This document shows, in pieces, positions 2,311 through 53,080 of a DNA stretch of 64,000 nucleotides. The DNA is from Escherichia phage CMS-2020a, in the sequence record CP053388.1, one strand, 5' to 3'. The translations under genes were made by a program, and so were the position numbers. Under the pieces are notes generated by a model that worked only from the letters and a program-made list of their open reading frames with translations, was not told the origin of the DNA and did not search any database. Within the stretch, counting starts at the first letter, position 1; the number at the start of each line of letters is the position of its first letter.

Positions 2311-5300
2311 TTACATTTTTGCCTTCAGTTCGCGCACTTCCTCGCGCAGCTCTTTGACAGCCTCGACCAACATGCCGATAACGCCGTTGTAGTTAAGACG
2401 CAGACGAGGCTCTCCTGACTGATCGTTATGGTCAACCGTTACCAGTTCAGGCTGAACATTCTGGACGTCCTGAGCGATGAGGCCGCCAGACTGCTCATAC
2501 CGGTCACAGACCTGAATCTCGTACAGAACACCTTCGATCCGATCCAGCTTGTCGAGCGCTCGTTCAATCTTGCGAATATTGCGTTTGCTACGACGGTCAG
2601 AGCGGATATAAACGTCATTAAAGCTGCCATTACCGCCACAAACCCAAGTACCATCATTCTGGAGGTATGCGTTCGCATCCGTGCCGTTTGCGGTACGTGA
2701 GTTGTTGATCATGTAAAAACCAAACTGACTGTTTCCCAAGCCACCCAAGAAGAATTTGCGATCCGCGTGGTCTTGTCTCAACAACGCTTGTGCAGAGCTT
2801 GTACTTACAGCGTTCCTCCCGAAGATGACGTTCTGGTTACGCATATCTATCCACGCGCCAGAGCCGCTGTTGATGGAAAAACGGTTGGCGTAAACCCACG
2901 CACTTGACGTGATGTCACCCGTTACACTCAACGGCTTAAGGCTTTGCAGCGTGCTATTAACGAACCTAAAAACATGGGCGCTATTGGCGTAAACATCCAG
3001 AATGCCATCTCCGTTCTGTTTAAAGCCGGTGTCATTGTCACCCAGAACAATGGAATTACCGCCAAGAGCACTGGATGTACCGATGCCCAGTGCACCATTC
3101 AATTGACCTCCAGATAATGATAACGCCCCAACATCAGCAGCAGTCGGTTTAATGTGCGAACTGTAAATTACATATACAGTTCCATCTGTCAGGCCTGTTG
3201 GTTTATTCGCTGTATAAGTTGGTGATGTATGAATCGTTACGCTGGCGTTACTGGTATAATCCCACTGGATATTAACACCTGTGGCGTAATTACCTATTTC
3301 TACATAAATGTCATAGGTATCACCGGATGTATTCACCCATGCAAAATTAGTAAATCCAACCGAGGTCCGTCGCCATAATGCACCAGTAATACCTTTGGGG
3401 TTCCCATTTCCTGCACGCAGAACCAGCTCAGAGATGCCTGCTTGCTGCGGGGAGCCAACGTTAAACCCTGCGCCACCAATCAGGCTTATGTAAACCACGG
3501 AACTGGCTTGTGGCATGGTTACAGTTGCCAGCTTGAACCATCCGGCACCACCACTAAAAGACATTGTTGCTGAGTTGATCGTGCCTATAGACCTTGGAGT
3601 TAGCTCAATATTTTTAGAACCGTCAAACGACACCCCATTTATAGTTCTAGCGGTTTGTAACTTGGTCGCTGTCGCTGCATTACCGGTTGTGTTCTGGTTA
3701 CCAGCAATGTTTACACCCGGCAGGTTGATATTGGCGGAGCCATCGAATGACACGCCGCCTATTGTGCGTGCTGTTTGCAGTTTTGTTGCAGTTGCAGCAT
3801 TACCGTTCAAACTACCATTGATGCCGCCAGTAACATTGAGTCCATTACCGATCGTAACAGCACCGCTGGTATTATTAATTATAATAGGTCGCAAACCGTT
3901 CCATGAACCTAATGTGTCTCCTGATGCTGTTAGCATGAAATATGTGTTCGATCCATCATTACGGATAAAGAATCCATAGTTGCCATAGGCAATGCGCAGA
4001 CCATTCGCCGATTTTGAAATAATCTCGCCAGCAGCAGTTAATCCGCCAGTTAACGCTCCTCCAGAAAGCGATAATGCTCCTACATCAGAAGCTGTTGGTT
4101 TGTTTCTAGTGTTATAAGAACGACGCCAGCCTGGCGCGTAATCACTGCCATTGTACACATAAATAAATTCCGCATTGTTAACACCACCATGACCCGATGT
4201 TGTTGTCGTTGTAACACGAATAGTGTAGTGGCTTGTTGCCTTATTACTAAACACCTCAATCACGGAACCAGATAGATCGATCCTACCGCAACCAGTGTCG
4301 TCTATATAATTATTGTTGGCGTAAGTCCATGAGCACCGTGCGATCCAATGTTTGTTTGTAAATGCCCCCTGATTATTTAGCCAAGTTATAAATTGAGCAG
4401 TCGTAAATGCCGTTCCGTTACCACTATTTAACCATCCAGCGGCAGCGGTTGGCGCGTTTATATCAGCCGGCTGAGGCATAAATCCAGTCGTGTAAACCTG
4501 CTCCCAACCACTTTCAAAACCATAGCCATCTCTTGAGGAACGGTAGAACAGACCACCATTTTTATAGTGAGCTTTAATTTGAAGCGTACGGCAACTACCT
4601 AAACCGGTATAAAAGTTGGCAAGAATATAACTGTGGCCTGTTCTATTTACATTATAAGCACCAGATTCAGCATTCCACGGCACGCCACCATCAGCATCCG
4701 CATATGACCCTGTTGCCCTTCTTGCGAAAGCGGCAACATGCGCAGCGGTTAAAGTGATATCAGTAGAACCATCAAATGGAACACCGGATATTTTTCTTAC
4801 CGTCTGAAGTTTTGTAGCAGTTGCAGCATTACCAGTGGTGTTCTGATTACCCGTAGTGTTTACACCTGGAAGGTTAATATTTGCAGAACCGTCGAAAACA
4901 ACTCCACCGATAGATCTTGCCGTCTGCAATTTCGTGGCTGTACTTGCATTACCATTCAATGAACCAGTTAATCCACCTGTAACAGACAACGGACCTGAAA
5001 CTGTTCCTCCGGTTGTTGGCAGTGCTCCAATATCTAACGGCGTCGGTTTCTGATGTGTGCTATACATCGTATAAACAACACCATCGGTAACGCTGGAAGG
5101 CTTACTCGCTGAATATGTTGGCGATGTATAAATAGAAACTGTCGCATTTGCAGTACAATCCCAATGGATATTTACACGAGTCGCATAATTGCCAATCTCA
5201 ACGTAAATATCATATGTATCGCCGGATGTGTTGATCCAGGCGAAATTCGTTAACCCGACGGCTGTACGCTTCCACAAAGCCCCGGTAATTCCTTTGGGGT

Positions 5301-7134: not shown

Positions 7135-10100
7135 TCACAGACGGCCAATTCTTACTCGTAAGACGTTGTTATCGTCATAAACGTCAATCCGCTGACCATT
7201 TATAACCAATCGCCCATTGCCGCCGCTATTACCGTTGATCTCAAGCGTTCCATTTTTGCCGAACCGCCATCCAGATCTACCGCTAACAAAATTGGTAGAT
7301 TGCAGATCGCCTACTTTTGCATTGGTGATTGTGCCATCCTTGATATACGCTCCATTCATATAGGCGATACTGTTTTCGATAACAAATGGCGTTGTGATCT
7401 TCCCGTTAACAGAGTTGACCAAACCAAACCTGTCAGCCTGCACCAAAAACTGAGAAAGGCCAGTGGTGTCGATACCAAGCGCAATACCAGCAACATACTT
7501 CTGCCCTCCGCTCGTTGAAGTTTCCATTTTCAACGTCCACGCGGTTGACACTTTTTTGTTGGTATCAGCAATAGCTGTTGCCTGCTGTTGAATTGTCGCG
7601 GTATTTCCATCCACCTCTGCTTTCAGAGTATCGATTCGCCCACTCAGAGCATTATCTGCCTGCGTTCTCGCTGTCGTTTCAGTTGTTACCGCCGCGGAAA
7701 TGTTGGCTGCCGTTTGAGACTCTAAGTTTGTGATTTGAGTCGCCAATGCGGCATCTTGCTCTGTACGCGTTTTCGTTTCGGTTGCTACAGCCGCTTTAAT
7801 ATCCTCTTTGTATTGAGAGGTCAGCTTGGTGATCTGAGACGACAACGCCGAGTCAGCATCAGTTCGAGCCTGCGTTTCAACTGCAACGGCCGCACTAATA
7901 TCTTTCGCTGTCTGTGCTTTTAAACTTGAAACCTCTTTTGTTAAAGCGGTATCACCATCTGCACGAGCCGTTGTTTCTCTGGCAAGAGACGCCTCGAGAT
8001 CATTAGCTTTTGCTGTAAGAGACGTAATCTGGGTAGACAATGCACTATCGGCATCAGTCCTTGCTTTTGTCTCTACAGCAACCGCTGCGGCAATATCAGT
8101 TCCGGTTTGTGCTCGCAGGCTGTTAATTTCTCGTGAGAGCGCCTGGTCAGCACTTGCCCTGGCCTCCTGCTCCTGAGTGATGGCAGCGGATATATCACCG
8201 TCAACCTTTGACTGAAGCTGGTTTATTTGTTTGGCTAACGCAGAGTCCCCGCTTGCTCGAGCCTCCTGCTCACTACGTATTGCAGCAGAAATATCATCAT
8301 CAACCTTTGCCTGAAGTTGGGTGATCTGGCTTGCCAGAGCCGAATCTTCCGTTGCTCGGGCTTCTTGCTCTTCCTTAATAGCTGCGACGATATCGTTGCT
8401 TACTTTCGACTCAAGCTGAGTGATCTGTGTCGTCAGAGCTTCATCGGCAGATGTACGAGCCTCCTGCTCTGTACTAATCGCCGCGCTGATATCTCCTTCA
8501 AACTTAGATTGCAGCTGAGTGACACGCTTTGCCAACGCTTCATCGCCATCGGCACGAGCGGTGGACTCTTCCAGAATACTGGCCTTAATGTCTTCGCCAA
8601 TTTCTACGCGAATTTCCTCAACCTTCGTGGCTATTGCAGACATATCATCAGCAAAGGTTTTCTGTGTTGTTGCGATCTTCGCGTTATTGACCATCTGCTT
8701 GTGCTGGTCTTCATCTTGACGAAGAGCCAGGTCAATATTTGTTTTGGCTAACGCCTCAATGTTCGTAGTCAGTTCTGCACTGGCACGATCGACCTCTGCA
8801 ACCGTCTTTTTCATTTCTTCAACGGCAGCGGAGCTTTCCTCTACCGTTGACTGCAACACTTCCAGTTGTTTAGCGTTTGCAGCATCGCCTTCAACACGAG
8901 CCTCGCTTTCCTTAGCAATAAGAGCCGCCGCTTCATCTCTTGCAGCCTTTATTGCCTCGACTGTATTAGCGAGAGCTTTATCGTGTTCAGATACGGTGTT
9001 TTCGATTTCAACAATTGCAGCATCAGTAGCATCAATTTTTTCAAACGCTTCATTGACCTTGTCAATCGTTGCCGAAACCTCACCTTTAAGCTCGGTTTGT
9101 GCGTTCTCCAAAGCATCGCTACGCTCGTTGAATTTTATTTCAAAATCCGCGAGGTTATCGCTGAACTGCTTATCTAATTCAGCTATATCTTCCTTAACGT
9201 CGTTTACCGCCCCCTCCAAAGATTCGACGCTCTGGTTGATATGCTCATTTAACTCGTCAACTGCTTCTTGAGAGGCTTTGCTGTTGATGTCCTCAAGCAG
9301 AGCCTGACCAAGCTCGGAAGATGTAATTTTGCCAGTCAGGAACGACAGTACATCGCGAGTTGTCGCCTCTGTACCCAAGTTTGAGTTCGGAGGACTTAAC
9401 ATACCTCGCTTGTTCGATGCTCGAACCCAGTAATACCACGTTTCGCTATCCCCAAGACCAGCATGTGTAAAGGTGGTGCTTGCAGACTCTGCGATCAGTT
9501 TCGCCGTATCCAGATTGTTGGTCTGGGATGCGTAAACATTAATGTGATCAAGGTCTACCGAATCTGGATTAACCCAATTCAGTATCACATTACGATAGTC
9601 TCCAACGGCCGTTAATGACGTTGGGGAATCCGGCGGTGTCATTGTGCCCAACACCTGATAAACGGTACTGATAATCTCTGTTTTTTTACCGTTGAATGAA
9701 ACCGCATACAGCTGGAAGTCGTAGCGTCCATTCTCCGCGACATTAACGATTTCGTATTGCTCTTCGGTTACACGCGCCGATTGCCAGTTCGATACATTGT
9801 TTTCATCAGAACGTCGCCAACTGATCCAATACTCTGGAGATTTCCCTTCCCATGTTGCAGTCAGTTTTACTGACAGGTTGCCAGGGCTTGAGAGATAAGT
9901 CCCTTCGGTGATTTGCAAATTAGACGGCTTGGAGTAAGTCGGGTCCAATACCGTCGTATTCTGCGGGATAAGCGTTGCACCATTGTCGATTGCCTCATAT
10001 TTAGACGGATTGTTCTCAACAGCGGTGATGTCAAAGCTACCCGGCGTTTCCCCCTGCGCGATGTTAACGATGCGAACGCGCATAGGTTCGAGATCTGGTT

Positions 10101-11868
10101 CTGTAATTGTCCAGACACCGTTCAAAACAGGCGTTTCCGCTGACGACAGGGCTTTTGAAAACGTAACCTTTGTTATGTTTTCGCCAGTTTCAAGAACATC
10201 GCGTTCAACGATTTTGCCTTCCTGATTCAGTATTCGAATAAAGCAGCCGCCTTTGGCTAACGACACCGGCGCATCGAGTGTGACGCTGTTTTTGGTAAAC
10301 GCCACAATTCGACCTGAGTTACGTTTGCCTGCGCGATATTTGTTCTGAATCAGAACGGTTTCACCAGGCATCAGAAATGACGCGTCTAAGCCGGCAGTAA
10401 ATGTAATTACATCCGACTCCATTCTGGCGGTATATAAAAGCCACAAACCAACTCGGTGAGCCTGCCCTCGGCTTGTACAGCCAAATGCTACGACTTCTGT
10501 CTTACGCTCACCATAACGGCGCATTGCGTCCTGATCTTCAACGTACTCGATGTTTTGCTTATAACCGTCCTCCTTGTTGTTGTAGGTTACGAGCGCAACG
10601 GATGGGCGATCTTTACGCGCAGAACCTTTATAGGTAAACAATCCATCTTTGACGTTAGAGTTGGTAAACATCATTACCGGATCTGATGGGCTATCCTGCA
10701 TGATGTTAACCATGCCACCAGCCCAAAACACCATACCGCGGAATGCACCGGCAATATCCTGAATTAATCGGTATGCGTCCTGTCGACTGGTGATCTGCGT
10801 ATTGATTGCAAAGCGTTTCTCTTTACCACCAAAGCCATCATCAACCTCTTCGTCACAATATCGACCGATCTGGTATAGCTGGCCGAGGTCAATCATAGAT
10901 TCCGACACATACTGACCAAGGCCATATCGAGCATTGGTAAGCAAATCAAAGAGAATCCACGCGGGGTTTGAAGAAGACAACAGCTTAAAAGTGCCATCCC
11001 ATACACCATCATAAGTGTTGCTGGCCTCGTTGTAGTTTGACGGCACGCGAATTTTTAATCCACGTACCAAATACGAACGAGATGGCATGGTGCTACCAAA
11101 CTGCTCAGAATTAACCTTCAGACCCACCAGCACAGAGTTTGGGTAGTTCATCGGTGTATCTACAATCTCACCTATTGAGTCCACCCATGTATCGTTATAG
11201 AGATACTGGCTGCTGTTATCATCGGTAATACGGACTACACGAACCTTGTACGCGCGTCCAGGCTTAGGCAGCTTCAGCTCATAGCTACGGTAATAAACAC
11301 CTGTCTTCTTTGCTGTTAGCTTAATGCCAACGCTTTTTTCACCTTCTGCGACCACATCTACAAATGTTGAGTCGCCATTTGCTATCTGGAACTTGTACTC
11401 AACGGTTGTACCGTTCGTGTCACCAGTTTTTTTATCTATGCTTCGCAAAGAAGGAAACTTCATGATGACACGAACCCGATCAGCTTCATCGTTATCGATT
11501 GAAACCGTTACATAATGTGTTTTTTTTAACTGGATATTGACGGATTTAGGCGTTTCAACGAAATCAAAGCCAGACATTGGAGTCTGGTCTTGCGAACCGT
11601 CGCGAAAATCCCATGTGATTCCGCTGAAGTTGGAGGAACCGTCTTCATTTACAATCGGCAGATCGTCGACAAAAATAGATCTTGCGCCATTTACCAAGCC
11701 GCCAATTACACCTTCCCCAAGAAGATCGAGGATAGCGGCCATTGCACGAGAATTTACGGTATCGTCGGCTTCAACCGGTGTACGGCTAGAGCTTTTGCTG
11801 CTTTTTTTACCACCCGCACCTGCAATAAACAGCGGTAACTTTTTCTTCTTGAACTGTTCCATGTTCAA
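7135..11868 (-). CDS. tail tip / host specificity protein (lambda J-like) with inserted coiled-coil repeat stalk
   Basis: 1577 aa; N-terminal region alignable to lambda J; about 10 tandem ~37-aa repeats of the ITQLxSKVxxDIxAAIxxEQEARxxxDxAL type. Confidence 0.9.
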   Translation of the reverse strand: MNMEQFKKKKLPLFIAGAGGKKSSKSSSRTPVEADDTVNSRAMAAILDLLGEGVIGGLVNGARSIFVDDLPIVNEDGSSNFSGITWDFRDGSQDQTPMSGFDFVETPKSVNIQLKKTHYVTVSIDNDEADRVRVIMKFPSLRSIDKKTGDTNGTTVEYKFQIANGDSTFVDVVAEGEKSVGIKLTAKKTGVYYRSYELKLPKPGRAYKVRVVRITDDNSSQYLYNDTWVDSIGEIVDTPMNYPNSVLVGLKVNSEQFGSTMPSRSYLVRGLKIRVPSNYNEASNTYDGVWDGTFKLLSSSNPAWILFDLLTNARYGLGQYVSESMIDLGQLYQIGRYCDEEVDDGFGGKEKRFAINTQITSRQDAYRLIQDIAGAFRGMVFWAGGMVNIMQDSPSDPVMMFTNSNVKDGLFTYKGSARKDRPSVALVTYNNKEDGYKQNIEYVEDQDAMRRYGERKTEVVAFGCTSRGQAHRVGLWLLYTARMESDVITFTAGLDASFLMPGETVLIQNKYRAGKRNSGRIVAFTKNSVTLDAPVSLAKGGCFIRILNQEGKIVERDVLETGENITKVTFSKALSSAETPVLNGVWTITEPDLEPMRVRIVNIAQGETPGSFDITAVENNPSKYEAIDNGATLIPQNTTVLDPTYSKPSNLQITEGTYLSSPGNLSVKLTATWEGKSPEYWISWRRSDENNVSNWQSARVTEEQYEIVNVAENGRYDFQLYAVSFNGKKTEIISTVYQVLGTMTPPDSPTSLTAVGDYRNVILNWVNPDSVDLDHINVYASQTNNLDTAKLIAESASTTFTHAGLGDSETWYYWVRASNKRGMLSPPNSNLGTEATTRDVLSFLTGKITSSELGQALLEDINSKASQEAVDELNEHINQSVESLEGAVNDVKEDIAELDKQFSDNLADFEIKFNERSDALENAQTELKGEVSATIDKVNEAFEKIDATDAAIVEIENTVSEHDKALANTVEAIKAARDEAAALIAKESEARVEGDAANAKQLEVLQSTVEESSAAVEEMKKTVAEVDRASAELTTNIEALAKTNIDLALRQDEDQHKQMVNNAKIATTQKTFADDMSAIATKVEEIRVEIGEDIKASILEESTARADGDEALAKRVTQLQSKFEGDISAAISTEQEARTSADEALTTQITQLESKVSNDIVAAIKEEQEARATEDSALASQITQLQAKVDDDISAAIRSEQEARASGDSALAKQINQLQSKVDGDISAAITQEQEARASADQALSREINSLRAQTGTDIAAAVAVETKARTDADSALSTQITSLTAKANDLEASLARETTARADGDTALTKEVSSLKAQTAKDISAAVAVETQARTDADSALSSQITKLTSQYKEDIKAAVATETKTRTEQDAALATQITNLESQTAANISAAVTTETTARTQADNALSGRIDTLKAEVDGNTATIQQQATAIADTNKKVSTAWTLKMETSTSGGQKYVAGIALGIDTTGLSQFLVQADRFGLVNSVNGKITTPFVIENSIAYMNGAYIKDGTITNAKVGDLQSTNFVSGRSGWRFGKNGTLEINGNSGGNGRLVINGQRIDVYDDNNVLRVRIGRL
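7670..8750 (-). repeat. tandem ~111-bp coding repeats (coiled-coil heptad array) inside J-like gene
   Basis: Repeating gcctcctgctc... units visible in DNA; protein repeats EQEARA(S/T)xDxAL. Confidence 0.7.
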
Positions 11869-43753: not shown

Positions 43754-45787
43754 TTACTTAACTTGGTGGCCTGGTTTAGCACCAGCATCCGGGCTTAACA
43801 GGAAGATATCTTTTCCGCCAGGGCCAGCAGCCATCACCATGCCTTCGGAGATACCGAAGCGCATTTTACGCGGTGCCAGGTTAGCCACCATAATGGTGTG
43901 ACGACCAATCAGTGCCTGTGGATCTGGATAAGCGGAACGAATGCCTGAGAAGACATTACGTTTTTCTCCGCCGAGATCCAGTGTCAGGCGCAGCAGTTTG
44001 TCAGAACCTTCGACAAACTCCGCGTTTTCAATCAGCGCCACACGCAGGTCAACTTTGGCGAAGTCGTCAAAGGTGATGGTTTCCTGAATCGGGGCGTCAG
44101 CCAGTGGGCCAGTTACCGGTGCAGCTGTGGCTTTCACTTCTTCTTTGGATGCTTCCACCAGTGCTTCCACCTGTTTCATATCGATACGGTTATACAGTGC
44201 CTTGAACGGATTCACTTTATGGCCCAGCAGCGGTTGCTGGATACCATCCCAGGTCAGTTCTGTATTCAGGAATGCTTCTGCACGTTCAGTCAGTTTCGGC
44301 AGTACCGGTTTCAGGTACGTCATCAGCACGCGGAACAGGTTAATGCCCATAGAGCAAATCGCCTGCAGATCGGCATCGCGTCCTTCCTGCTTCGCCACCA
44401 CCCACGGAGCCTGTTCATCAACATAGCGGTTAGCCAGGTCAGCCAGTGCCATGATTTCACGGATAGCTTTGCCAAATTCGCGGCTTTCCCATGCTTCGCC
44501 AATCACTTCAGCGGCATCAGTAAAGGTTTTGTACAGTTGCGGGTCAGCCAGTTCGCTTGCCAGCACGCCGTCAAAACGCTTGTTGATAAAGCCTGCATTA
44601 CGGGAGGCCAGGTTAACCACTTTGTTCACGATATCGGCATTCACGCGCTGAACGAAATCTTCCAGGTTGAGATCGATATCATCAATGCGCGAAGAGAGTT
44701 TCGCAGTGTAGTAGTAACGCAGGCTGTCGGCGTCAAAATGATTCAGCCAGGTGCTGGCTTTAATAAAGGTGCCGCGAGACTTGGACATCTTCGCACCGTT
44801 CACCGTCACATAGCCATGAACAAACAGGTTGGTCGGCTTGCGGAAGTTGCTGCCTTCTAGCATGGCAGGCCAGAACAGGCTGTGGAAGTAAACGATATCT
44901 TTGCCGATGAAGTGGTACAGCTCGGCGGTGGAGTCTTTCTTCCAGTATTCGTCGAAGCTGGTAGTGTCGCCGCGTTTGTCGCACAGATTCTTGAAGGAAC
45001 CCATGTAGCCAATCGGCGCGTCCAGCCAGACGTAGAAGTATTTGCCCGGTGCGTTCGGAATTTCAAAACCGAAGTAAGGTGCGTCACGGGAGATATCCCA
45101 CTGTTGCAGGCCAGATTCAAACCACTCCTGCATTTTGTTTGCCACCTGCTCCTGCAACGCACCGCTGCGGGTCCATGCCTGCAACATTTCGCTGAAAGAA
45201 GGCAGATCAAAGAAGAAGTGTTCGGAATCACGCATTACCGGTGTAGCGCCAGAAACTACCGATTTCGGCTCGATCAGTTCCGTCGGGCTGTATGTCGCGC
45301 CGCAGACTTCACAGTTATCGCCGTATTGATCCGGCGCTTTACATTTCGGGCATGTGCCTTTTACAAAACGGTCCGGCAGGAACATGCCTTTTTCCGGGTC
45401 GTACAGCTGAGAGATGGTGCGGTTTTTAATAAAACCGTTCTCTTTCAGGCGAGTGTAGATAAGCTCGGACAACTGACGGTTCTCTTCGCTGTGCGTCGAG
45501 TGATAGTTGTCATAGCTGATGTTAAAGCCTGCGAAATCAGTCTGATGTTCCTGACTCATTTCGCCAATCATCTGCTCCGGTGTGATACCAAGCTGCTGTG
45601 CTTTCAGCATGATCGGCGTACCGTGGGCATCGTCGGCACAGATGAAATTAACCTCGTGGCCGCGCATTCGCTGGTAACGAACCCAGACATCAGCCTGGAT
45701 GTGCTCCAGCATATGGCCGAGGTGGATTGAGCCGTTAGCGTACGGCAGCGCGCACGTCACCAGAATTTTCTTCGCGACTTGGGTCAT
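43754..45787 (-). CDS. metG: methionyl-tRNA synthetase
   Basis: Start [25 protein letters not shown] (HIGH motif), KMSKS motif, C-terminal tRNA-binding domain; matches enterobacterial MetG as recalled from memory. Confidence 0.97.
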
Positions 45788-45944
45788 AGTAGGCATTACT
45801 TCTTTGTAGTGAAAAGGGGCTTGATAGTAACAAAATGGCCTTATGTCTGCCATGTGATAACAGCATTTCTCATAAATGATTAAATGTCGTAGCTGGAGTA
45901 CACTACAAGGCGACAATTGCGCAAATTAAAATAAAGGAGACGGG

Positions 45945-47045
45945 ATGAGCGAGTCCAAATCGCCGGATGCCCTGAGAGCAATGGTAGCCGGTACGCTGGC
46001 TAATTTTCAGCACCCAACCCTGAAACACAACCTGACTACGCTTAAAGCGTTACACCATGTTGCGTTGATGGATGACACACTGCATGTCGAACTAATCATG
46101 CCTTTCGTGTGGAATAAGCCTTTTGAAGACCTGAAAGAGCAATGTAGTGGTGATCTGCTCCGTATCACTGGCGCAAAGGCTATTGACTGGAAGCTGTCGT
46201 ACAACATTGCCACGCTTAAGCGTGTCAAAAACCAACCAGGCATTAATGGCGTTAAGAACATTATCGCCGTCAGCTCAGGCAAGGGCGGCGTGGGTAAATC
46301 CTCCACGGCGGTAAACCTGGCACTGGCGTTGGCTGCTGAAGGTGCGAAAGTTGGTATTTTGGATGCCGATATCTATGGTCCATCAATTCCAACCATGCTG
46401 GGCGCGGAAAACCAACGTCCAACCTCACCTGACGGTACTCACATGGCACCTATCATGTCTCATGGCCTGGCAACCAACTCTATTGGTTATCTGGTCACCG
46501 ACGACAATGCAATGGTGTGGCGTGGACCGATGGCCAGCAAGGCGCTGATGCAGATGTTGCAGGAAACATTGTGGCCTGATCTGGACTATCTTGTTCTCGA
46601 TATGCCGCCGGGCACTGGTGATATTCAGTTGACGCTGGCGCAGAACATTCCTGTAACTGGTGCTGTTGTGGTAACTACGCCGCAAGACATCGCGCTGATC
46701 GATGCGAAGAAAGGCATTGTGATGTTCGAAAAAGTCGAAGTGCCGGTACTGGGTATCGTTGAAAACATGAGTGTGCATATTTGCAGTAACTGCGGTCATC
46801 ACGAGCCAATTTTTGGCACCGGTGGCGCACAGAAACTGGCCGAGAAATACAACACGCAGTTGTTAGGCCAAATGCCACTTCATATCTCTCTTCGTGAAGA
46901 TCTGGATAACGGAACACCAACCGTTATTAGTCGTCCAGATAGCGAATTTACAGCTATTTATCGTGACCTCGCAGATCGCGTTGCCGCCCAAATGTATTGG
47001 CAAGGTGAAGTAATACCTGGCGAAATCGCATTCCGCGCAGTGTGA
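45945..47045 (+). CDS. apbC: Fe-S cluster carrier ATPase ApbC/Mrp
   Basis: P-loop SGKGGVGKSS and CxxC motif; divergent from metG with AAGGAG RBS, the native enterobacterial arrangement. Confidence 0.95.
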   Translation: MSESKSPDALRAMVAGTLANFQHPTLKHNLTTLKALHHVALMDDTLHVELIMPFVWNKPFEDLKEQCSGDLLRITGAKAIDWKLSYNIATLKRVKNQPGINGVKNIIAVSSGKGGVGKSSTAVNLALALAAEGAKVGILDADIYGPSIPTMLGAENQRPTSPDGTHMAPIMSHGLATNSIGYLVTDDNAMVWRGPMASKALMQMLQETLWPDLDYLVLDMPPGTGDIQLTLAQNIPVTGAVVVTTPQDIALIDAKKGIVMFEKVEVPVLGIVENMSVHICSNCGHHEPIFGTGGAQKLAEKYNTQLLGQMPLHISLREDLDNGTPTVISRPDSEFTAIYRDLADRVAAQMYWQGEVIPGEIAFRAV

Positions 47046-47082: not shown

Positions 47083-47472
47083 CTACATCACGGGACAATC
47101 ATCAAACTCGCCACTTCTTGCGTCGTTGATAATGTGAGTGATCACACCAAACACGGCATTGCTGCCCGTGCATCCATCGTCATCCTTTGGCAATGCTTCC
47201 TTCTTACCGGTTCTTAAATCCTCCAGATGCTGACGTGGGTACTTCCGGTATCTTTTTACGCGATATTCCCCATCCAGAGCGCATACAAGCAGAGAACCAT
47301 CAACCGGGGTAAGTGAGGAATCGACCACCAGCAATGCACCCTGTAATATTCCCTCACGATGATGACTATCAGCTGCCCTCATGAAGTAGGTCGCTGAAGG
47401 ATGTCTAATTATCTGCTGATCAAGAGAAATACGGCTCTCAACATAATCCGCCGCAGGAGAAGGGAAGCCCAT
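47083..47472 (-). CDS. UmuD'-like S24 peptidase-family protein (N-terminally pre-truncated, HumD-like)
   Basis: GFPSPAADYVESRISLDQQIIRHPSATYF aligns with UmuD from its autocleavage-site region onward; no umuC. Confidence 0.85.
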   Translation of the reverse strand: MGFPSPAADYVESRISLDQQIIRHPSATYFMRAADSHHREGILQGALLVVDSSLTPVDGSLLVCALDGEYRVKRYRKYPRQHLEDLRTGKKEALPKDDDGCTGSNAVFGVITHIINDARSGEFDDCPVM

Positions 47473-48267: not shown

Positions 48268-48900
48268 CTACATACTTTCTGATCTAATTGAGTTGTTCAC
48301 TGCTCTGGCAATCTTCTCCCGCAATTGCTGCGCTCCGTGGTACTGAACCGCAATATCCCGCAACTCGTTCACCAGTTCTCTAATCTGGTGATCTTTAAGC
48401 TCATTATTTGGGTGATGGGTAACAACTCTGGTTAATTCACCCTTGTCTTTTGCTCTTACGTATGCAGCTCTTGTGCATTCGACCCATGTATTACCGCCTA
48501 CATTAACTTCGTAGATTAGGCTGGACTTATCTGTCAATTCGGAACAAATACGGGCCGTGGTCTGGCAACTAGAGCATTCGCAGTTATCGCGGAAACCGTG
48601 ATCTACCGGTCGAGAAAGAGGTTTAACTTTTTCATCCAACTTCATCACAGCATCGTGATAAGCGTTCCAGCCGTCATCTTTACCAAGTTGATAAATCTCT
48701 GAAGGCTCCATGTAGTCTATATCGCAACCTTCTTCATCCGATCTATCTGGTCGCTTCCCTGGTAATCGCTCATAAAAACGTTTTCTGTCTCGACGTTCGG
48801 CTCTCAGAGCTAACGCAAGAAGTTGCTCAAGCGAGGTATTTGCACCAGCAATAATTTCATTGAGAATATCTTCTGTGAGATCTTTCGCTACCGTGCTCAT
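48268..48900 (-). CDS. hypothetical protein
   Basis: 210-aa ORF. Confidence 0.5.
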   Translation of the reverse strand: MSTVAKDLTEDILNEIIAGANTSLEQLLALALRAERRDRKRFYERLPGKRPDRSDEEGCDIDYMEPSEIYQLGKDDGWNAYHDAVMKLDEKVKPLSRPVDHGFRDNCECSSCQTTARICSELTDKSSLIYEVNVGGNTWVECTRAAYVRAKDKGELTRVVTHHPNNELKDHQIRELVNELRDIAVQYHGAQQLREKIARAVNNSIRSESM

Positions 48901-49280
48901 TTATCTCTCTCAGTATGTTGCGATGGCGTAAATTTGACGACATCAAATATTTTGGATGGCATCAACTTTATCCGCGAGCTTAGTTCGGCTCTTCTCTGTA
49001 ATGCGGTTAATAATGTTTTCGTTCTGACGCCTTCGTGTATCCTCATCCCTGGCACAAGAACTACATCGCAGGGGAGATGCTCAGGTGACAAATCATTTTG
49101 GGCATCGCTAATCAGTCGTGTAATCTCTCTTTCAAGCCGACCGCCTAGCTCTGTTTTAGTGCAATGTTCTGACCAATCGCCAGCCTCAAGCAGCGCGAGA
49201 ATGCTTAAAATATCGTCCAATAGAACGGTAGTATTATCGACTTCCTTCTGAAACTCACCGGCTACTGATTTATGCATCAT
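48897..49280 (-). CDS. hypothetical protein
   Basis: 127-aa ORF, coupled to neighbours. Confidence 0.45.
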   Translation of the reverse strand: MMHKSVAGEFQKEVDNTTVLLDDILSILALLEAGDWSEHCTKTELGGRLEREITRLISDAQNDLSPEHLPCDVVLVPGMRIHEGVRTKTLLTALQRRAELSSRIKLMPSKIFDVVKFTPSQHTERDK

Positions 49281-49930
49281 TCGTCATCCTCATCCGAGTC
49301 ATCCTCATCACAGGATGAGAGTAGTGGGTTAGTCATTCGCCCTACTTGAGTGGCGTAGCCACGCCGACAGAGATTGCGCAGCACACTGTATATTTCGAAC
49401 ATCTCGGTTCGTTCATCGCCAACATCAAGCTCAGATGCTATAGCGTGGCATTCAGTCGCGAGAGCCGATATTTTCTGAAATAACTCTGCATTATTCACTG
49501 TTCGACTCCTGCGGCGTTCTGGTAGTGACATCCAGTGTGTGACATTGCTAATCAGACCATATTCATTAGTTTGAGGATGGTTGCCGTTAGCGTCTCCGTA
49601 TTTAAGACTCTCCATAAAGCCATAATGCCTATCACCATTAACGCTCACAAAGCCGTAATAAGCAGGTATAACGCCGATCTCACACGTAACCAGTAAAGGA
49701 AAACTAGTTCTCCAATTTAGCTCGCCAATTACAGGCATTCGCTCACTACAGCTTATCCAACCATCCTTAGATGCGGCTGTATTGGCATAGGCCTTACGGT
49801 GCTTCTGTAGCTCTGCTGCAATCGCTCTCACGACTTCAACTGGTGCTCTTGCAGCAAACTCAATGTTGGTGATCAGCTCATTAAGATATTTCTCGCTTGG
49901 GTAGCATTTCTTATTGTTAACGGTGGTCAT
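49277..49930 (-). CDS. DUF551-like phage early protein
   Basis: GWISCSERMP ... VTHWMSLPERRR pattern. Confidence 0.55.
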   Translation of the reverse strand: MTTVNNKKCYPSEKYLNELITNIEFAARAPVEVVRAIAAELQKHRKAYANTAASKDGWISCSERMPVIGELNWRTSFPLLVTCEIGVIPAYYGFVSVNGDRHYGFMESLKYGDANGNHPQTNEYGLISNVTHWMSLPERRRSRTVNNAELFQKISALATECHAIASELDVGDERTEMFEIYSVLRNLCRRGYATQVGRMTNPLLSSCDEDDSDEDDE

Positions 49931-50115
49931 TAGGCAGCTCTCTCAACAACAAGCAATTCGTCGTAGTCATAATCAGTTTCGGAACCATCCGTACCGAACA
50001 GAGTCACTTTGTCATTTTCCATCCAAAAAGATTTAACCGCACATTGTTGACCTTTAGATGTTATGAGCACATCACCAGGGATTACGTCTTCAGCGCGAAC
50101 CTCTAGTGTTCTCAT
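49930..50115 (-). CDS. hypothetical small protein
   Basis: 61-aa ORF. Confidence 0.35.
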   Translation of the reverse strand: MRTLEVRAEDVIPGDVLITSKGQQCAVKSFWMENDKVTLFGTDGSETDYDYDELLVVERAA

Positions 50116-50642
50116 CGTGCTGCCCCCTCTTTGGTGAAAATGCCTGCTGCAATGCTGTTTATGATGCTGTCAGTGCATGGAGTAGAAAGCTGGGCATCTC
50201 CAGCAATTTTCATGACCTCAACATCCGCATATCGAATACCGAGGTGTATCAGACCGGCTATACCTGACTTAAGTCGAACATTTTCCATAAACAGATCTTT
50301 TTCCCGCTGTTTAGCGCCTTCCAACTCCATCGACAATTTTTCCAACTGCTCTTTATGCTTCTTGTATTCCTGATACGCGTGCCAAGACTGACCTTTGCGC
50401 ACACTATCAGTGATATCAGCAACCTGCTCTGGTGTTAGCGTGGTCAGTGGCTGTGCTGGAAAAATCATCACTTGCCCGGCATCCCAATCAAAACCCGCCT
50501 GAATTGACTGAACCTCAACTGATGGTGTTGAACCGATGCGACCAGGCGAATGAACAACGATCGTTACATCCATATCGCGACGATGGCTGTGGTTGTTGGA
50601 CAAAATACGATTCACCAACTCAGAAAATTTGGATAATTTCAT
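50112..50642 (-). CDS. hypothetical protein (start set at MKLSKF)
   Basis: ATG overlaps stop of upstream gene (ATGA). Confidence 0.45.
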
Positions 50643-50962
50643 GCTGATCTCTCTTTCTCTCCCCGGATAATTCTGTTGCACACATCCACACACTCGTCGC
50701 AGATGAAAACGGCGTCCCCAGCAATTAACTTTTTGACGGCGTACTGGGATTTGTTGCAGAAGCTGCAACAAAGTGTTCGCCTGACTGATAAGGATGGAGC
50801 GCCAGATGTCAGCCGCTCCATATCGTTCTTGCGACGCAATATCACACGGCTGAACTCAACCAGTTTCTCCGGGGATATCTCCTCCTCCGTAGCGAGCGTC
50901 TCTAGTCGTTCGAGTATGTTGAAGGCTTTTTCTTGGGTAATAGCAGAGTGCGATGTGGTCAT
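50639..50962 (-). CDS. ClpX-type C4 zinc-finger domain protein
   Basis: [35 protein letters not shown] closely parallels the ClpX N-terminal zinc-binding domain. Confidence 0.6.
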
Positions 50963-51360
50963 TTTCTTTCACCTTCAATGTTCGTGGCGCTGGCACGATT
51001 GTCCTTGCGAAGAAGAGCGGCTATGCGCTTACTTCCATCCGAGATAACGCCCTCGTAATACTCACGCTGCTCGTTGAGTTTTGATTTTGCCAACTCCAGT
51101 TGTTTTGTTAGTTCCGCAATACGGCAAACATCGTTGATACGCGTTTCCTCTAATGCGTTGATCTCATCCAGTAGTGCCAGCACGGTTTCTGGTCCGGCCA
51201 GAAATTTGAAGGCGTTGAGGGCATCAATATCAACACCGCTATCTTTAAGTTCCTGTTCGCATATCAGATCATCATCAACTGGCAACATTAACAGGCGTTC
51301 CATTGCCGGAATTGCACGCTCTGCCGCCTCACGCAGTGCCTGATAGTCAATCTTGCTCAC
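50959..51360 (-). CDS. hypothetical coiled-coil protein (Ea22-like?)
   Basis: 133-aa ORF. Confidence 0.4.
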
Positions 51361-51857
51361 TGGATGACTCCTTTACGAAGCTGTTCAGCAATACTTACGC
51401 ATATCTCTGCGCCTCTAATCAGCCCCGGAACGTTCTTGTTTGGCCCAACTTCACCATCAACAAAATCAATCATCGCGTTACGAGCCATATCCACGCCCTG
51501 CGCACGTACTTCAGCCAGAAAAGCATCGGTGGCTGGAGTCTCCGTCAATTCGCTAACCCAATTATCTCCGTGTTCCTCGGCACACATCGCATCGAATGCT
51601 CGCTCAGATTCTTTCAGGGCTGCATTCTCCGCCGCTAATGCGTCTCTTTGCGCCAGCAACTTCTCAATTTCGGCAGCCATGTAGTAACCAACCATAGCGA
51701 AGACGGCAAAAGAGTTATCTGCCTCATCAGGCGACACTGAGGCCATTAGCAGGCCATCGTAAAAATCGTGACTCCCATTGGTGATCGCCACCGCATAGGA
51801 GTCGTGGTTCTCGCGCTTGTGAATGAGAACTACGGGATTTTCGATTTTGTTACTCAT
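51357..51857 (-). CDS. hypothetical protein
   Basis: 166-aa ORF; motif A variant upstream. Confidence 0.5.
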   Translation of the reverse strand: MSNKIENPVVLIHKRENHDSYAVAITNGSHDFYDGLLMASVSPDEADNSFAVFAMVGYYMAAEIEKLLAQRDALAAENAALKESERAFDAMCAEEHGDNWVSELTETPATDAFLAEVRAQGVDMARNAMIDFVDGEVGPNKNVPGLIRGAEICVSIAEQLRKGVIQ

Positions 51858-51995: not shown

Positions 51996-52376
51996 CTAAT
52001 TGCCGGATAAAATGGGGTGAGGTGCTTGCCAGTAGGCTCCACCGTTCCATGTGAACCCCATGCGAATAAGAGTGTTTATTGCGGCTTTGGTAGCCTCCGA
52101 TTCGACACTGGCTTTTCGAAACTCTTGAACCTCTTTCGCCAACTTGTATGTAATTGTGCAGGGGACGATTGCAGCCCAGCCTTTCTCATGACTGTTAATG
52201 ACCATCTGGATGTGACCATCCAGAATAGGTTGATTAGGCATGTTATTGAAAATGTCTGCCTGTTTTTGAATGTGAAGAAAAAGCCTTGCCAGCTCCATTT
52301 GCTCACTCCGAGACAAGGGATTATCAAGAGGGCTTTTTGCAAAAGCGGCTACACGCTGTGCGTCAATGCCAAACAT
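51996..52376 (-). CDS. hypothetical protein
   Basis: 126-aa ORF. Confidence 0.45.
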   Translation of the reverse strand: MFGIDAQRVAAFAKSPLDNPLSRSEQMELARLFLHIQKQADIFNNMPNQPILDGHIQMVINSHEKGWAAIVPCTITYKLAKEVQEFRKASVESEATKAAINTLIRMGFTWNGGAYWQAPHPILSGN

Positions 52377-53080
52377 CAGCGCACCTCACCATCTTTATGG
52401 CTGGAGTTAACTTCCGCCATTAAATGTCTGACGTAATCGACAAGAGAGCCACCTGGTGGAATCTGGCATTCCTCGACTAACTGGAAGTAGATATCCGCAG
52501 CATTACGTGTATTGCTACCCGCACATATTCTTTCTTCCCGAAGTGCATGAAGCTCGTTGATCAAACGGTCACACTCTCCGTTACGCTGATCCACAACGGC
52601 CTCAAGCTCTGCGACGCGTTCACCTGGCGTCTTACCTTCTTTGCGTTGGATGGTAACGACGAAATCGCCAATTTCCGGGACGTTGTAATCCAGCTCAAGG
52701 TAGTTTTTGGCACCGCTGCGGACGAACTCACCCGCGAACATGGTAGCGAACATCGCAGAGGCCACTTCGCCGTTGAAAAGTGACTCCAGATCTAACGGAG
52801 TACCGGCAGCAAGAGCCTCTTTTGCTGTATCCATTGCATCCATGAACCGATCAAACTCATTGGCGCGCTTTTCCAGGTTTTTCCATTGCTCGCTCCAACG
52901 TTTGGCAACGAAGTCTATGAATGTTTTCGCGGATTCATCAAAATTCCCCTCAAACTTAACGATGCCTTTATCAATAATGATCTGGCCTACCGCATCCTCT
53001 GCATAACCTTTCAATGTAAACTTGAAAGGAAAATCGGAATGGCCTGTGACGTTAAAATGCTCTAACTGGAGGTTGCTCAT
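52376..53080 (-). CDS. hypothetical protein
   Basis: 234-aa ORF. Confidence 0.5.
   Translation of the reverse strand: MSNLQLEHFNVTGHSDFPFKFTLKGYAEDAVGQIIIDKGIVKFEGNFDESAKTFIDFVAKRWSEQWKNLEKRANEFDRFMDAMDTAKEALAAGTPLDLESLFNGEVASAMFATMFAGEFVRSGAKNYLELDYNVPEIGDFVVTIQRKEGKTPGERVAELEAVVDQRNGECDRLINELHALREERICAGSNTRNAADIYFQLVEECQIPPGGSLVDYVRHLMAEVNSSHKDGEVR

Follow-up and report, generated by a model that had tools for sequence, protein, structure and literature searches.

What does a temperate phage do with a ClpX docking domain that is detached from the unfoldase? The question is raised by a 107-aa protein encoded on the minus strand at 50639..50962 (start ATG at 50960-50962, stop at 50639-50641; supported by open reading frame (ORF) translation, PHROG 6797 and RefSeq) of a 64,000-nucleotide stretch of DNA from Escherichia phage CMS-2020a (CP053388.1), the whole of which is here called the window. 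An initial annotation, made from the letters alone, had proposed a phage protein with a ClpX-type zinc finger at this position, with a possible role as a decoy or adaptor of host ClpXP. Several decisions relevant to temperate phages and plasmids pass through ClpXP: the turnover of lambda O and MuA, the stability of antitoxins (Phd and others), sigma-S levels, the removal of LexA and CI fragments in SOS and prophage induction, and restriction alleviation. With a phage copy of the domain on which ClpX itself docks its adaptors and substrates, these ClpXP-controlled decisions could be tilted by simple means.

As judged by sequence, the 107-aa protein carries a genuine ClpX N-terminal C4 zinc-binding domain (ZBD), and the match is far above chance. 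Pfam PF06689 (zf-C4_ClpX) is matched with 57.5 bits (gathering cutoff 27, E=1.2e-15) by residues 65-100, covering positions 2-38 of the 39-position profile, and a phmmer search against the PDB aligned residues 62-103 with the solved E. coli ClpX ZBD (1ovx/2ds5) with E~1e-14 and ~70% identity. Compared with residues 11-52 of E. coli ClpX, the identity is also ~70% and rises to 80% in the subtype found in phage P88. A phage protein, or more precisely a phage-plasmid protein, with a ClpX-type zinc finger is thus confirmed at 50639-50962. The resemblance had been attributed to the C-terminal 40 residues; the domain is real, but the string quoted for it has 35 residues (65-99) and the domain itself spans about 62-103. 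The four zinc-ligand cysteines, on which the initial annotation had made its proposal depend, are all present on alignment: C66, C69, C88 and C91 (codons 50765-50767, 50756-50758, 50699-50701 and 50690-50692, minus strand) form a CxxC-x18-CxxC pattern that aligns with the ClpX ligands and is invariant in 25 of 25 family members. C65, the first residue of the 'CC' pair, aligns with ClpX Tyr14, is not a ligand and is replaced by Tyr in most alleles.

An AlphaFold2 model of the protein, built from an alignment of 23 family members, predicts a beta-hairpin and a helix for the zinc domain (predicted local distance difference test, pLDDT, 71-81). Foldseek placed this predicted domain at a root mean square deviation of 0.8-1.0 A over 38 residues from 2ds5, 2ds6, 2ds7 and 2ds8, with 71% identity; 2ds8 is the complex of the ZBD with the SspB tail (XB). 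Pfam, NCBIfam, the phmmer search of the PDB, Foldseek and a column comparison together locate the treble-clef ZBD at residues 62-101 (50660..50779, minus). The conserved ligands and hydrophobic positions suggest that the protein binds zinc and homodimerises. It is not a ClpX, because the AAA+ module is absent and the NCBIfam match is confined to the first ~45 positions: the ClpX equivalogs TIGR00382 and NF003745 gave 39-42 bits against cutoffs of 359-371 and were covered only at model positions ~4-48, and no AAA+ ATPase module (Walker A/B, pore loops, IGF loop) was found in the protein by these models.

The N-terminal ~60 residues, correctly described beforehand as unrelated to the zinc finger, match nothing beyond their own family in Pfam, PDB and phmmer searches. 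AlphaFold2 predicts a hairpin of two helices (residues 10-25 and 31-52, pLDDT 82-89), and the model, the invariant columns, dN/dS (the ratio of nonsynonymous to synonymous substitution rates) and phmmer together delimit the helical hairpin to residues 8-53 (50804..50941, minus). Among 1.84 billion representative proteins searched with phmmer, the hairpin occurs solely fused to the ZBD or in truncated or frameshifted copies of the family, and was never detected alone or fused to another domain. That it might be a known domain was rejected, as it has no Pfam match, no fold match in the PDB or BFVD and no occurrence outside the family among those representatives. Rather than a random extension, the hairpin is a family-specific element under purifying selection: across 23 cluster representatives, 18 of its ~59 columns show no variation, and its dN/dS is 0.11-0.35. 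Hairpin and ZBD are separated by a linker (about residues 53-62; mapped as the SGAPSLSV-like residues 54-61 to 50780..50803, minus, from low model confidence), which carries a 3-residue insertion in the P88 subtype. With a pLDDT <50 for residues 56-61, the model tentatively points to a flexible linker.

Three N-terminal subtypes can be distinguished, namely the MTTSHSAIT-type, the MQHIDREKAQ-type of P88 and that of protein P0121, and the conserved hairpin starts at I8/T9. In alleles of 119-121 aa (P0005, P0007, P0012 and P0020), the first 8 residues are replaced by MKSEGLTPAQLAERNAEL. Given that this is the N-terminus of the D6 orf91-like (Ea22-related) gene (D6 orf91 lies at 2980-3336 of the phage D6 locus, L003), these alleles are recombinant 5' chimeras.

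The full-length family is restricted to mobile elements of Escherichia, Salmonella and Shigella. The structural module of the window is 98.3% identical to that of phage Cyrano and 80.8% identical to that of Salmonella phage SSU5 (94% coverage of 22 kb), and the element is therefore an SSU5-group phage-plasmid; its accessory region matches E. coli plasmids of ~106-113 kb and phage PhiR41_1. The ZBD gene is absent from the close relatives SSU5 and Cyrano, and is therefore accessory. Besides SSU5-group phage-plasmids, the carriers comprise ~90-kb P1/D6-like phage-plasmids and P88-like phages and prophages of the P2 family, in which the ZBD gene occupies a variable slot with replication gene A or ParM-StbB on one side and the portal gene on the other. 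The family was detected in 220 of 5,426 complete E. coli genomes (~4%), at 127 chromosomal and 106 plasmid places, and the carrier phage-plasmids are common in clinical and environmental E. coli. The ZBD gene is a portable single-gene module shared by three unrelated temperate backbones (SSU5-group, P1-like D6 and P2-like P88). In the P88-like P2-family prophages, a ParM/StbA-type actin-like segregation protein and a Plasmid_stab_B partner are encoded directly upstream of the ZBD gene (8856-10131 in phage P88, loci L002/L017; 4439-5714 in the prophage loci L004-L010), and plasmid-partition functions are present in all three backbone types that carry the family.

RefSeq holds the protein as WP_024187529.1, 'ClpX C4-type zinc finger protein', on the 99.3%-identical plasmid pAVS0223-B, and PHROG 6797, matched over the full length (E=6.2e-58, protein residues 1-106 on profile positions 1-106 of 107), lists no function. 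The domain call is already known from RefSeq and PHROGs; the new part is the standalone, phage-specific architecture of a known docking domain, and full-text literature searches returned no study of phage proteins combining this hairpin with a ZBD. Many GenBank and RefSeq records, including those of phages D6 and P88, bear the older name 'carboxylate--amine ligase', which newer runs of the Prokaryotic Genome Annotation Pipeline have replaced by 'ClpX C4-type zinc finger protein'. No Pfam or NCBIfam match to a ligase catalytic domain (ATP-grasp or GCS2-type) was found, the ZBD being the sole significant domain, and the older name appears to be a propagated mis-annotation. Its presence on many database entries, the dispensability of the gene (SSU5 and Cyrano do without it) and the existence of truncated and frameshifted copies are what would be expected of a decaying or functionless fragment, a mis-called ORF or an enzyme of that name. 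This is exceedingly improbable in view of the intact copies in 220 complete E. coli genomes and three phage backbones, the purifying selection on the hairpin, a good Shine-Dalgarno-like sequence read 6 nt 5' of the ATG (GAAGGTGA, 50969..50976, minus), translational coupling, and the lack of any ligase or ATP-grasp domain; a functionless or mis-called gene is effectively refuted by conservation.

The reading that we favour, with a probability of roughly 40%, is that the 107-aa protein mimics, in trans, the docking domain at the N-terminus of ClpX. The temperate phage-plasmid would express it from a long, translationally coupled accessory operon, as a small zinc-binding protein that is probably a dimer. 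Its ZBD would occupy ligands that dock on the ClpX N-domain, either the XB-type motifs of SspB, RssB or UmuD or N-domain-dependent substrates, and would withdraw them from ClpXP, stabilising a subset of ClpXP substrates. The helical hairpin would add another contact, specific to the family, on which the choice of target or the oligomeric state depends. In physiological terms, the protein might shift sigma-S or SOS/induction thresholds or, by analogy with lambda RexB, block protease-dependent toxin-antitoxin or abortive-infection responses. Both the binding to ClpX ligands and the physiological outcome are what we infer.

By analogy, the decoy idea has a real biochemical precedent in the isolated ClpX ZBD. 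The ClpX ZBD is a constitutive dimer and the shared docking platform of SspB and RssB, which compete for one site; its deletion abolishes RssB-dependent sigma-S degradation and leaves ssrA-tag degradation unaffected, and the isolated domain inhibits RssB-mediated sigma-S degradation in trans in vitro (PMC7226468). XB peptides bind the isolated ZBD at 35-82 nM, and a protein tethered to the ZBD is degraded, tethering being sufficient (PMC12373786). As for possible consequences, ClpX gates SOS and prophage induction by clearing the N-terminal fragments of LexA and CI (PMC10584840), lambda RexB shields lambda O, Phd and MazE from Clp proteolysis (PMC11077077), and the phage Lon inhibitors gp4.5 and PinA represent a strategy against toxin-antitoxin systems (PMC10286901). 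The mimicry proposal is directly testable, since assays exist for SspB with GFP-ssrA, for RssB with sigma-S and for XB-peptide binding, and PhiR41_1, an active carrier propagated on K-12, is available for genetics.

The conservation of the domain can be set against that of host clpX. The ZBD coding DNA is 61% identical to K-12 clpX, with matches at 19 of 43 third codon positions and identical codons at 13 of the 28 identical residues; the protein-level likeness to ClpX is therefore old and maintained by selection. A recent capture of host clpX was ruled out by the same DNA identity and the largely diverged synonymous sites. When the family was compared column by column with 11 true ClpX N-domains, all structural and hydrophobic positions invariant in the latter were found to be kept, and the K-L-I-A-G of the beta-hairpin is retained in most family members.

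Other observations weigh against a mimic directed at the ligands of host ClpX. The main subfamily replaces the ClpX-invariant P32 by D/E and has A/T for the conserved acidic residue 24 and R/N/S for the acidic residue 46, while in one subgroup the beta-hairpin is altered (K27L, A30T, Y35C); these changes of surface and beta-hairpin could abolish XB-type binding. The dN/dS of the ZBD (0.2-1.3, from small samples) is above that of the hairpin; the latter equals the ZBD in conservation and is subject to the stronger purifying selection. A pure decoy would need no strongly conserved hairpin, and the conservation of this part therefore implies that the protein is more than a bare decoy. The ZBD surface patches that vary between alleles fit a variable target better than invariant host adaptors, and would be unexpected if the latter were the sole targets. 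The gene is also dispensable, as its absence from SSU5 and Cyrano indicates. Given the three changed surface positions and the allele-variable patches, the specificity of the phage ZBD may differ from that of ClpX. These two features weigh most heavily against a simple decoy for invariant host adaptors.

Allelic variation was followed between the window and phage D6 (L003 4001-4321). Nucleotides 1-182 of the gene differ at 3 sites, and beyond them the differences are grouped in patches at codons 61-65, 74-76, 94-98 and from 101 onward; within the ZBD, 10 changes are nonsynonymous and 2 are synonymous. The divergence starts at the 3' end of the linker, and this mosaicism reflects either allele shuffling with a breakpoint in the linker or diversification of surface patches, that is, diversifying selection.

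The replaced ClpX surface positions, the patches that vary between alleles and the stronger constraint on the hairpin would all suit another explanation, in which the ZBD is a compact, zinc-stabilised dimerisation scaffold and the real target lies outside ClpXP, with the hairpin and the variable surface of the ZBD serving as contacts; a transcription or sigma factor, a protein of a competing phage or a host defence protein would be examples. Metagenomes do contain ZBDs in architectures other than that of ClpX, for example a ZBD with a second C4 ribbon. Moreover, CsfB (Gin) of B. subtilis, a small standalone dimeric treble-clef zinc protein that is structurally the nearest to the ClpX N-terminal domain and the only other dimeric treble clef like it, functions as an anti-sigma factor and has no role related to ClpX (PMC5890618). 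CsfB differs from the phage protein, however, in having only ~20% identity to ClpX, another interface pattern, sigma factors as ligands and no hairpin domain. The 65-85% identity of the phage domains to ClpX ZBDs goes far beyond what the fold alone needs, as CsfB illustrates, and has persisted despite diverged synonymous sites; surface residues that are not needed for folding (the equivalents of K20, Q22, K26/27, N45 and R49) are mostly kept. We regard a pure scaffold as somewhat unlikely; if mimicry is not true, the family shows the re-use of the ClpX domain as a scaffold.

The hydrophobic positions speak to a further alternative, in which the protein joins ClpX itself, its ZBD forming heterodimers with the N-domains or its hairpin docking there. 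Its role would then be either that of an adaptor supplied by the phage, which hands a chosen protein (for example a restriction subunit or the repressor of a rival) over for destruction, or that of a poison subunit blocking the N-domain platform. ClpX ZBDs dimerise constitutively through a hydrophobic interface built from the helix and hairpins (PMC5890618, PMC7226468), and the corresponding positions are all hydrophobic in the phage family; at the equivalents of helix positions 43 and 47, however, the residue varies (V/A/D/L and I/V/L/A/G), a risk for any protein that had to keep a fixed interface with host ClpX. The predicted succession of a binding hairpin, a flexible linker and a docking domain would correspond to the layout of an adaptor, tethering to the ZBD suffices for degradation (PMC12373786), and ClpXP-dependent degradation of HsdR underlies restriction alleviation (PMC11109961). 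Against this, no cargo candidate was identified, and the invariant L42-R43-R44-K45 of the hairpin, situated in predicted helix 2, agrees at just two positions with the LKxh consensus of ZBD-binding motifs; an internal XB-like tether at this site is a weak idea only. Entry into ClpX is, on balance, quite improbable.

Both sequestration and entry into ClpX are contained in a more general proposal, that the family represents an AAA+ unfoldase 'pseudo-N-domain' encoded by viruses, a portable single-gene module with which temperate enterobacterial phages would reprogram ClpXP substrate selection by sequestering adaptors or degrons or by plugging into ClpX as an adaptor. The variability of the ZBD surface would in that case stem from an arms race, fought against rival prophages or against defence or addiction systems that depend on proteases. 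We hold this proposal to be somewhat unlikely; if true, it would be, to our knowledge and within the literature searched, the first phage mimic of a host protease docking domain. Should mimicry be true, a new class would be added to the proteins of host takeover or counter-defence, and the family would offer a natural means of manipulating ClpXP specificity.

With the ClpX N-domain (PF06689; 1OVX, 2DS5-2DS8), the phage domain has in common the CxxC-x18-CxxC pattern, the treble clef and the conserved hydrophobic core and interface positions. Unlike in ClpX, it is C-terminal rather than N-terminal, lacks a linker to an AAA+ ring and, in the main subfamily, is changed at P32 and at positions 24 and 46. 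The closest functional precedent for a temperate phage that damps ClpXP, by analogy only, is lambda RexB, a coliphage accessory protein for which stabilisation of Clp substrates is likewise proposed (PMC11077077, PMC10286901); RexB, however, resides in the membrane and is unrelated to the 107-aa protein in sequence and fold. IraD, IraP and IraM are small proteins that stabilise sigma-S by blocking its RssB-mediated delivery to ClpXP, and the sites of IraD and of the ClpX ZBD on RssB overlap, this being the site that a free ZBD would occupy (PMC7226468); the Ira proteins, however, are not ZBD homologues. T7 gp4.5 and T4 PinA are likewise small phage proteins; by neutralising an AAA+ protease of the host, they keep toxins from being activated in a protease-dependent way (PMC10286901), but they target Lon rather than ClpX, come from lytic phages and do not mimic a protease domain.

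Free ClpX-type ZBDs are less frequent in databases than counts suggest. The notion that standalone ZBD proteins are widespread proved largely an artefact, since the small PF06689 proteins encoded on long contigs proved to come from clpX genes split within the tig-clpP-clpX-lon locus, and such calls inflate the counts. Examples of split or frameshifted clpX are found on contigs from metagenomes and metagenome-assembled genomes, between clpP and an AAA+ ORF (L015 4001-4345; L016 4001-4234). Bacillus phage G gp258 was also discarded as a free ZBD, being a full ClpX instead. Genuine free ZBDs exist and are rarer: they include PHROG 12435, a 65-aa protein of Pseudomonas phage PP9W2 and a small ORF of Caulobacter phage Cr30. 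Like the family described here, these are phage-encoded free ClpX-type ZBDs without an AAA+ module; they differ in lacking the N-terminal hairpin and in showing only 36-44% identity, and represent independent, uncharacterised families. Five metagenome proteins of 123-138 aa (P0031, P0035, P0048, P0061 and P0076) combine an N-terminal ClpX-type ZBD, a low-complexity linker and a second C4 ribbon with the motif CxLCG...CGxCA..VE.AL.

In the window, the ZBD gene is tightly packed between its neighbours. Its start shares an ATGA (50959-50962) with the stop of the upstream Ead/Ea22-like gene (133 aa; 50959..51360, minus; Pfam PF13935, 82.5 bits), and its stop shares another (50639-50642) with the start of the downstream gene, known from the ORF list and the sequence, which encodes a 176-aa protein with no assigned function (50112..50642, minus). 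Eight consecutive small ORFs at 48268-51857 (minus), the ZBD gene included, are joined by start/stop overlaps of 1 or 4 nt, mostly ATGA, an arrangement that implies a single accessory operon with translational coupling. Pfam domains are present in just two of these ORFs, DUF551 and Ead/Ea22, and absent from the other six, and no promoter- or terminator-like sites were found flanking the ZBD gene.

An all-against-all BLASTP comparison of the neighbours of the ZBD gene in five contexts detected no shared gene except those of the Ead/Ea22 type, which are ubiquitous in such regions. An Ea22-like gene, next to or near the ZBD gene in D6 and the P2-like prophages, is the only recurrent neighbour, and these neighbours have just the Ea22 N-terminal motif in common. 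The downstream 176-aa protein has no Pfam, NCBIfam or PADLOC match and no similarity to the products of genes 3' of the ZBD gene in D6, P88 or the P2-like prophages; with unrelated downstream genes in all of these, a conserved partner or two-gene module was ruled out. Given that a single module without a conserved partner is found in three unrelated backbones, its target is probably not a phage-specific partner but a host factor, or something common to the carrier hosts, Escherichia and Salmonella. Membership in a known defence system was also dismissed, as the ZBD gene and eight neighbours (nine proteins) matched zero PADLOC-DB 2.0 families at E<=0.01.

At 47083-47472 (minus), 3 kb from the ZBD gene, the window encodes a HumD-family protein of 129 aa that begins with MGFPSPAADYVE, a pre-cleaved UmuD' homologue (NCBIfam equivalog NF051876, 221.7 bits against a cutoff of 120). 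UmuD/UmuD' is a ClpXP substrate that is tethered via the ClpX N-domain, and a functional link between HumD and the ZBD gene is conceivable in the phage-plasmids. Two general roles were nevertheless rejected. Phage P88 has the ZBD gene and no HumD/S24 protein, and its repressor is of the non-cleavable P2 C-type; therefore neither the protection of the element's own HumD from UmuD-tethered ClpXP degradation nor the control of the phage's own LexA-like repressor fragment can be general.

Farther from the ZBD gene, a 234-aa protein at 52376-53080 (minus) gave a sub-threshold Pfam match to a DrmE-like N-terminal domain (DISARM; E=0.009, 15.9 bits against a cutoff of 27), which is probably due to chance; PADLOC gave no match. 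The region at 43754-47045 contains a divergent pair formed by metG (minus) and apbC/mrp (45945-47045, plus), arranged as on the E. coli chromosome. Given that the pair is only 88.4% identical to K-12 over 3,297 bp, it is a foreign enterobacterial copy rather than a recent acquisition from E. coli. As metG encodes methionyl-tRNA synthetase, the phage-plasmid copy thus represents a second enzyme of this kind.

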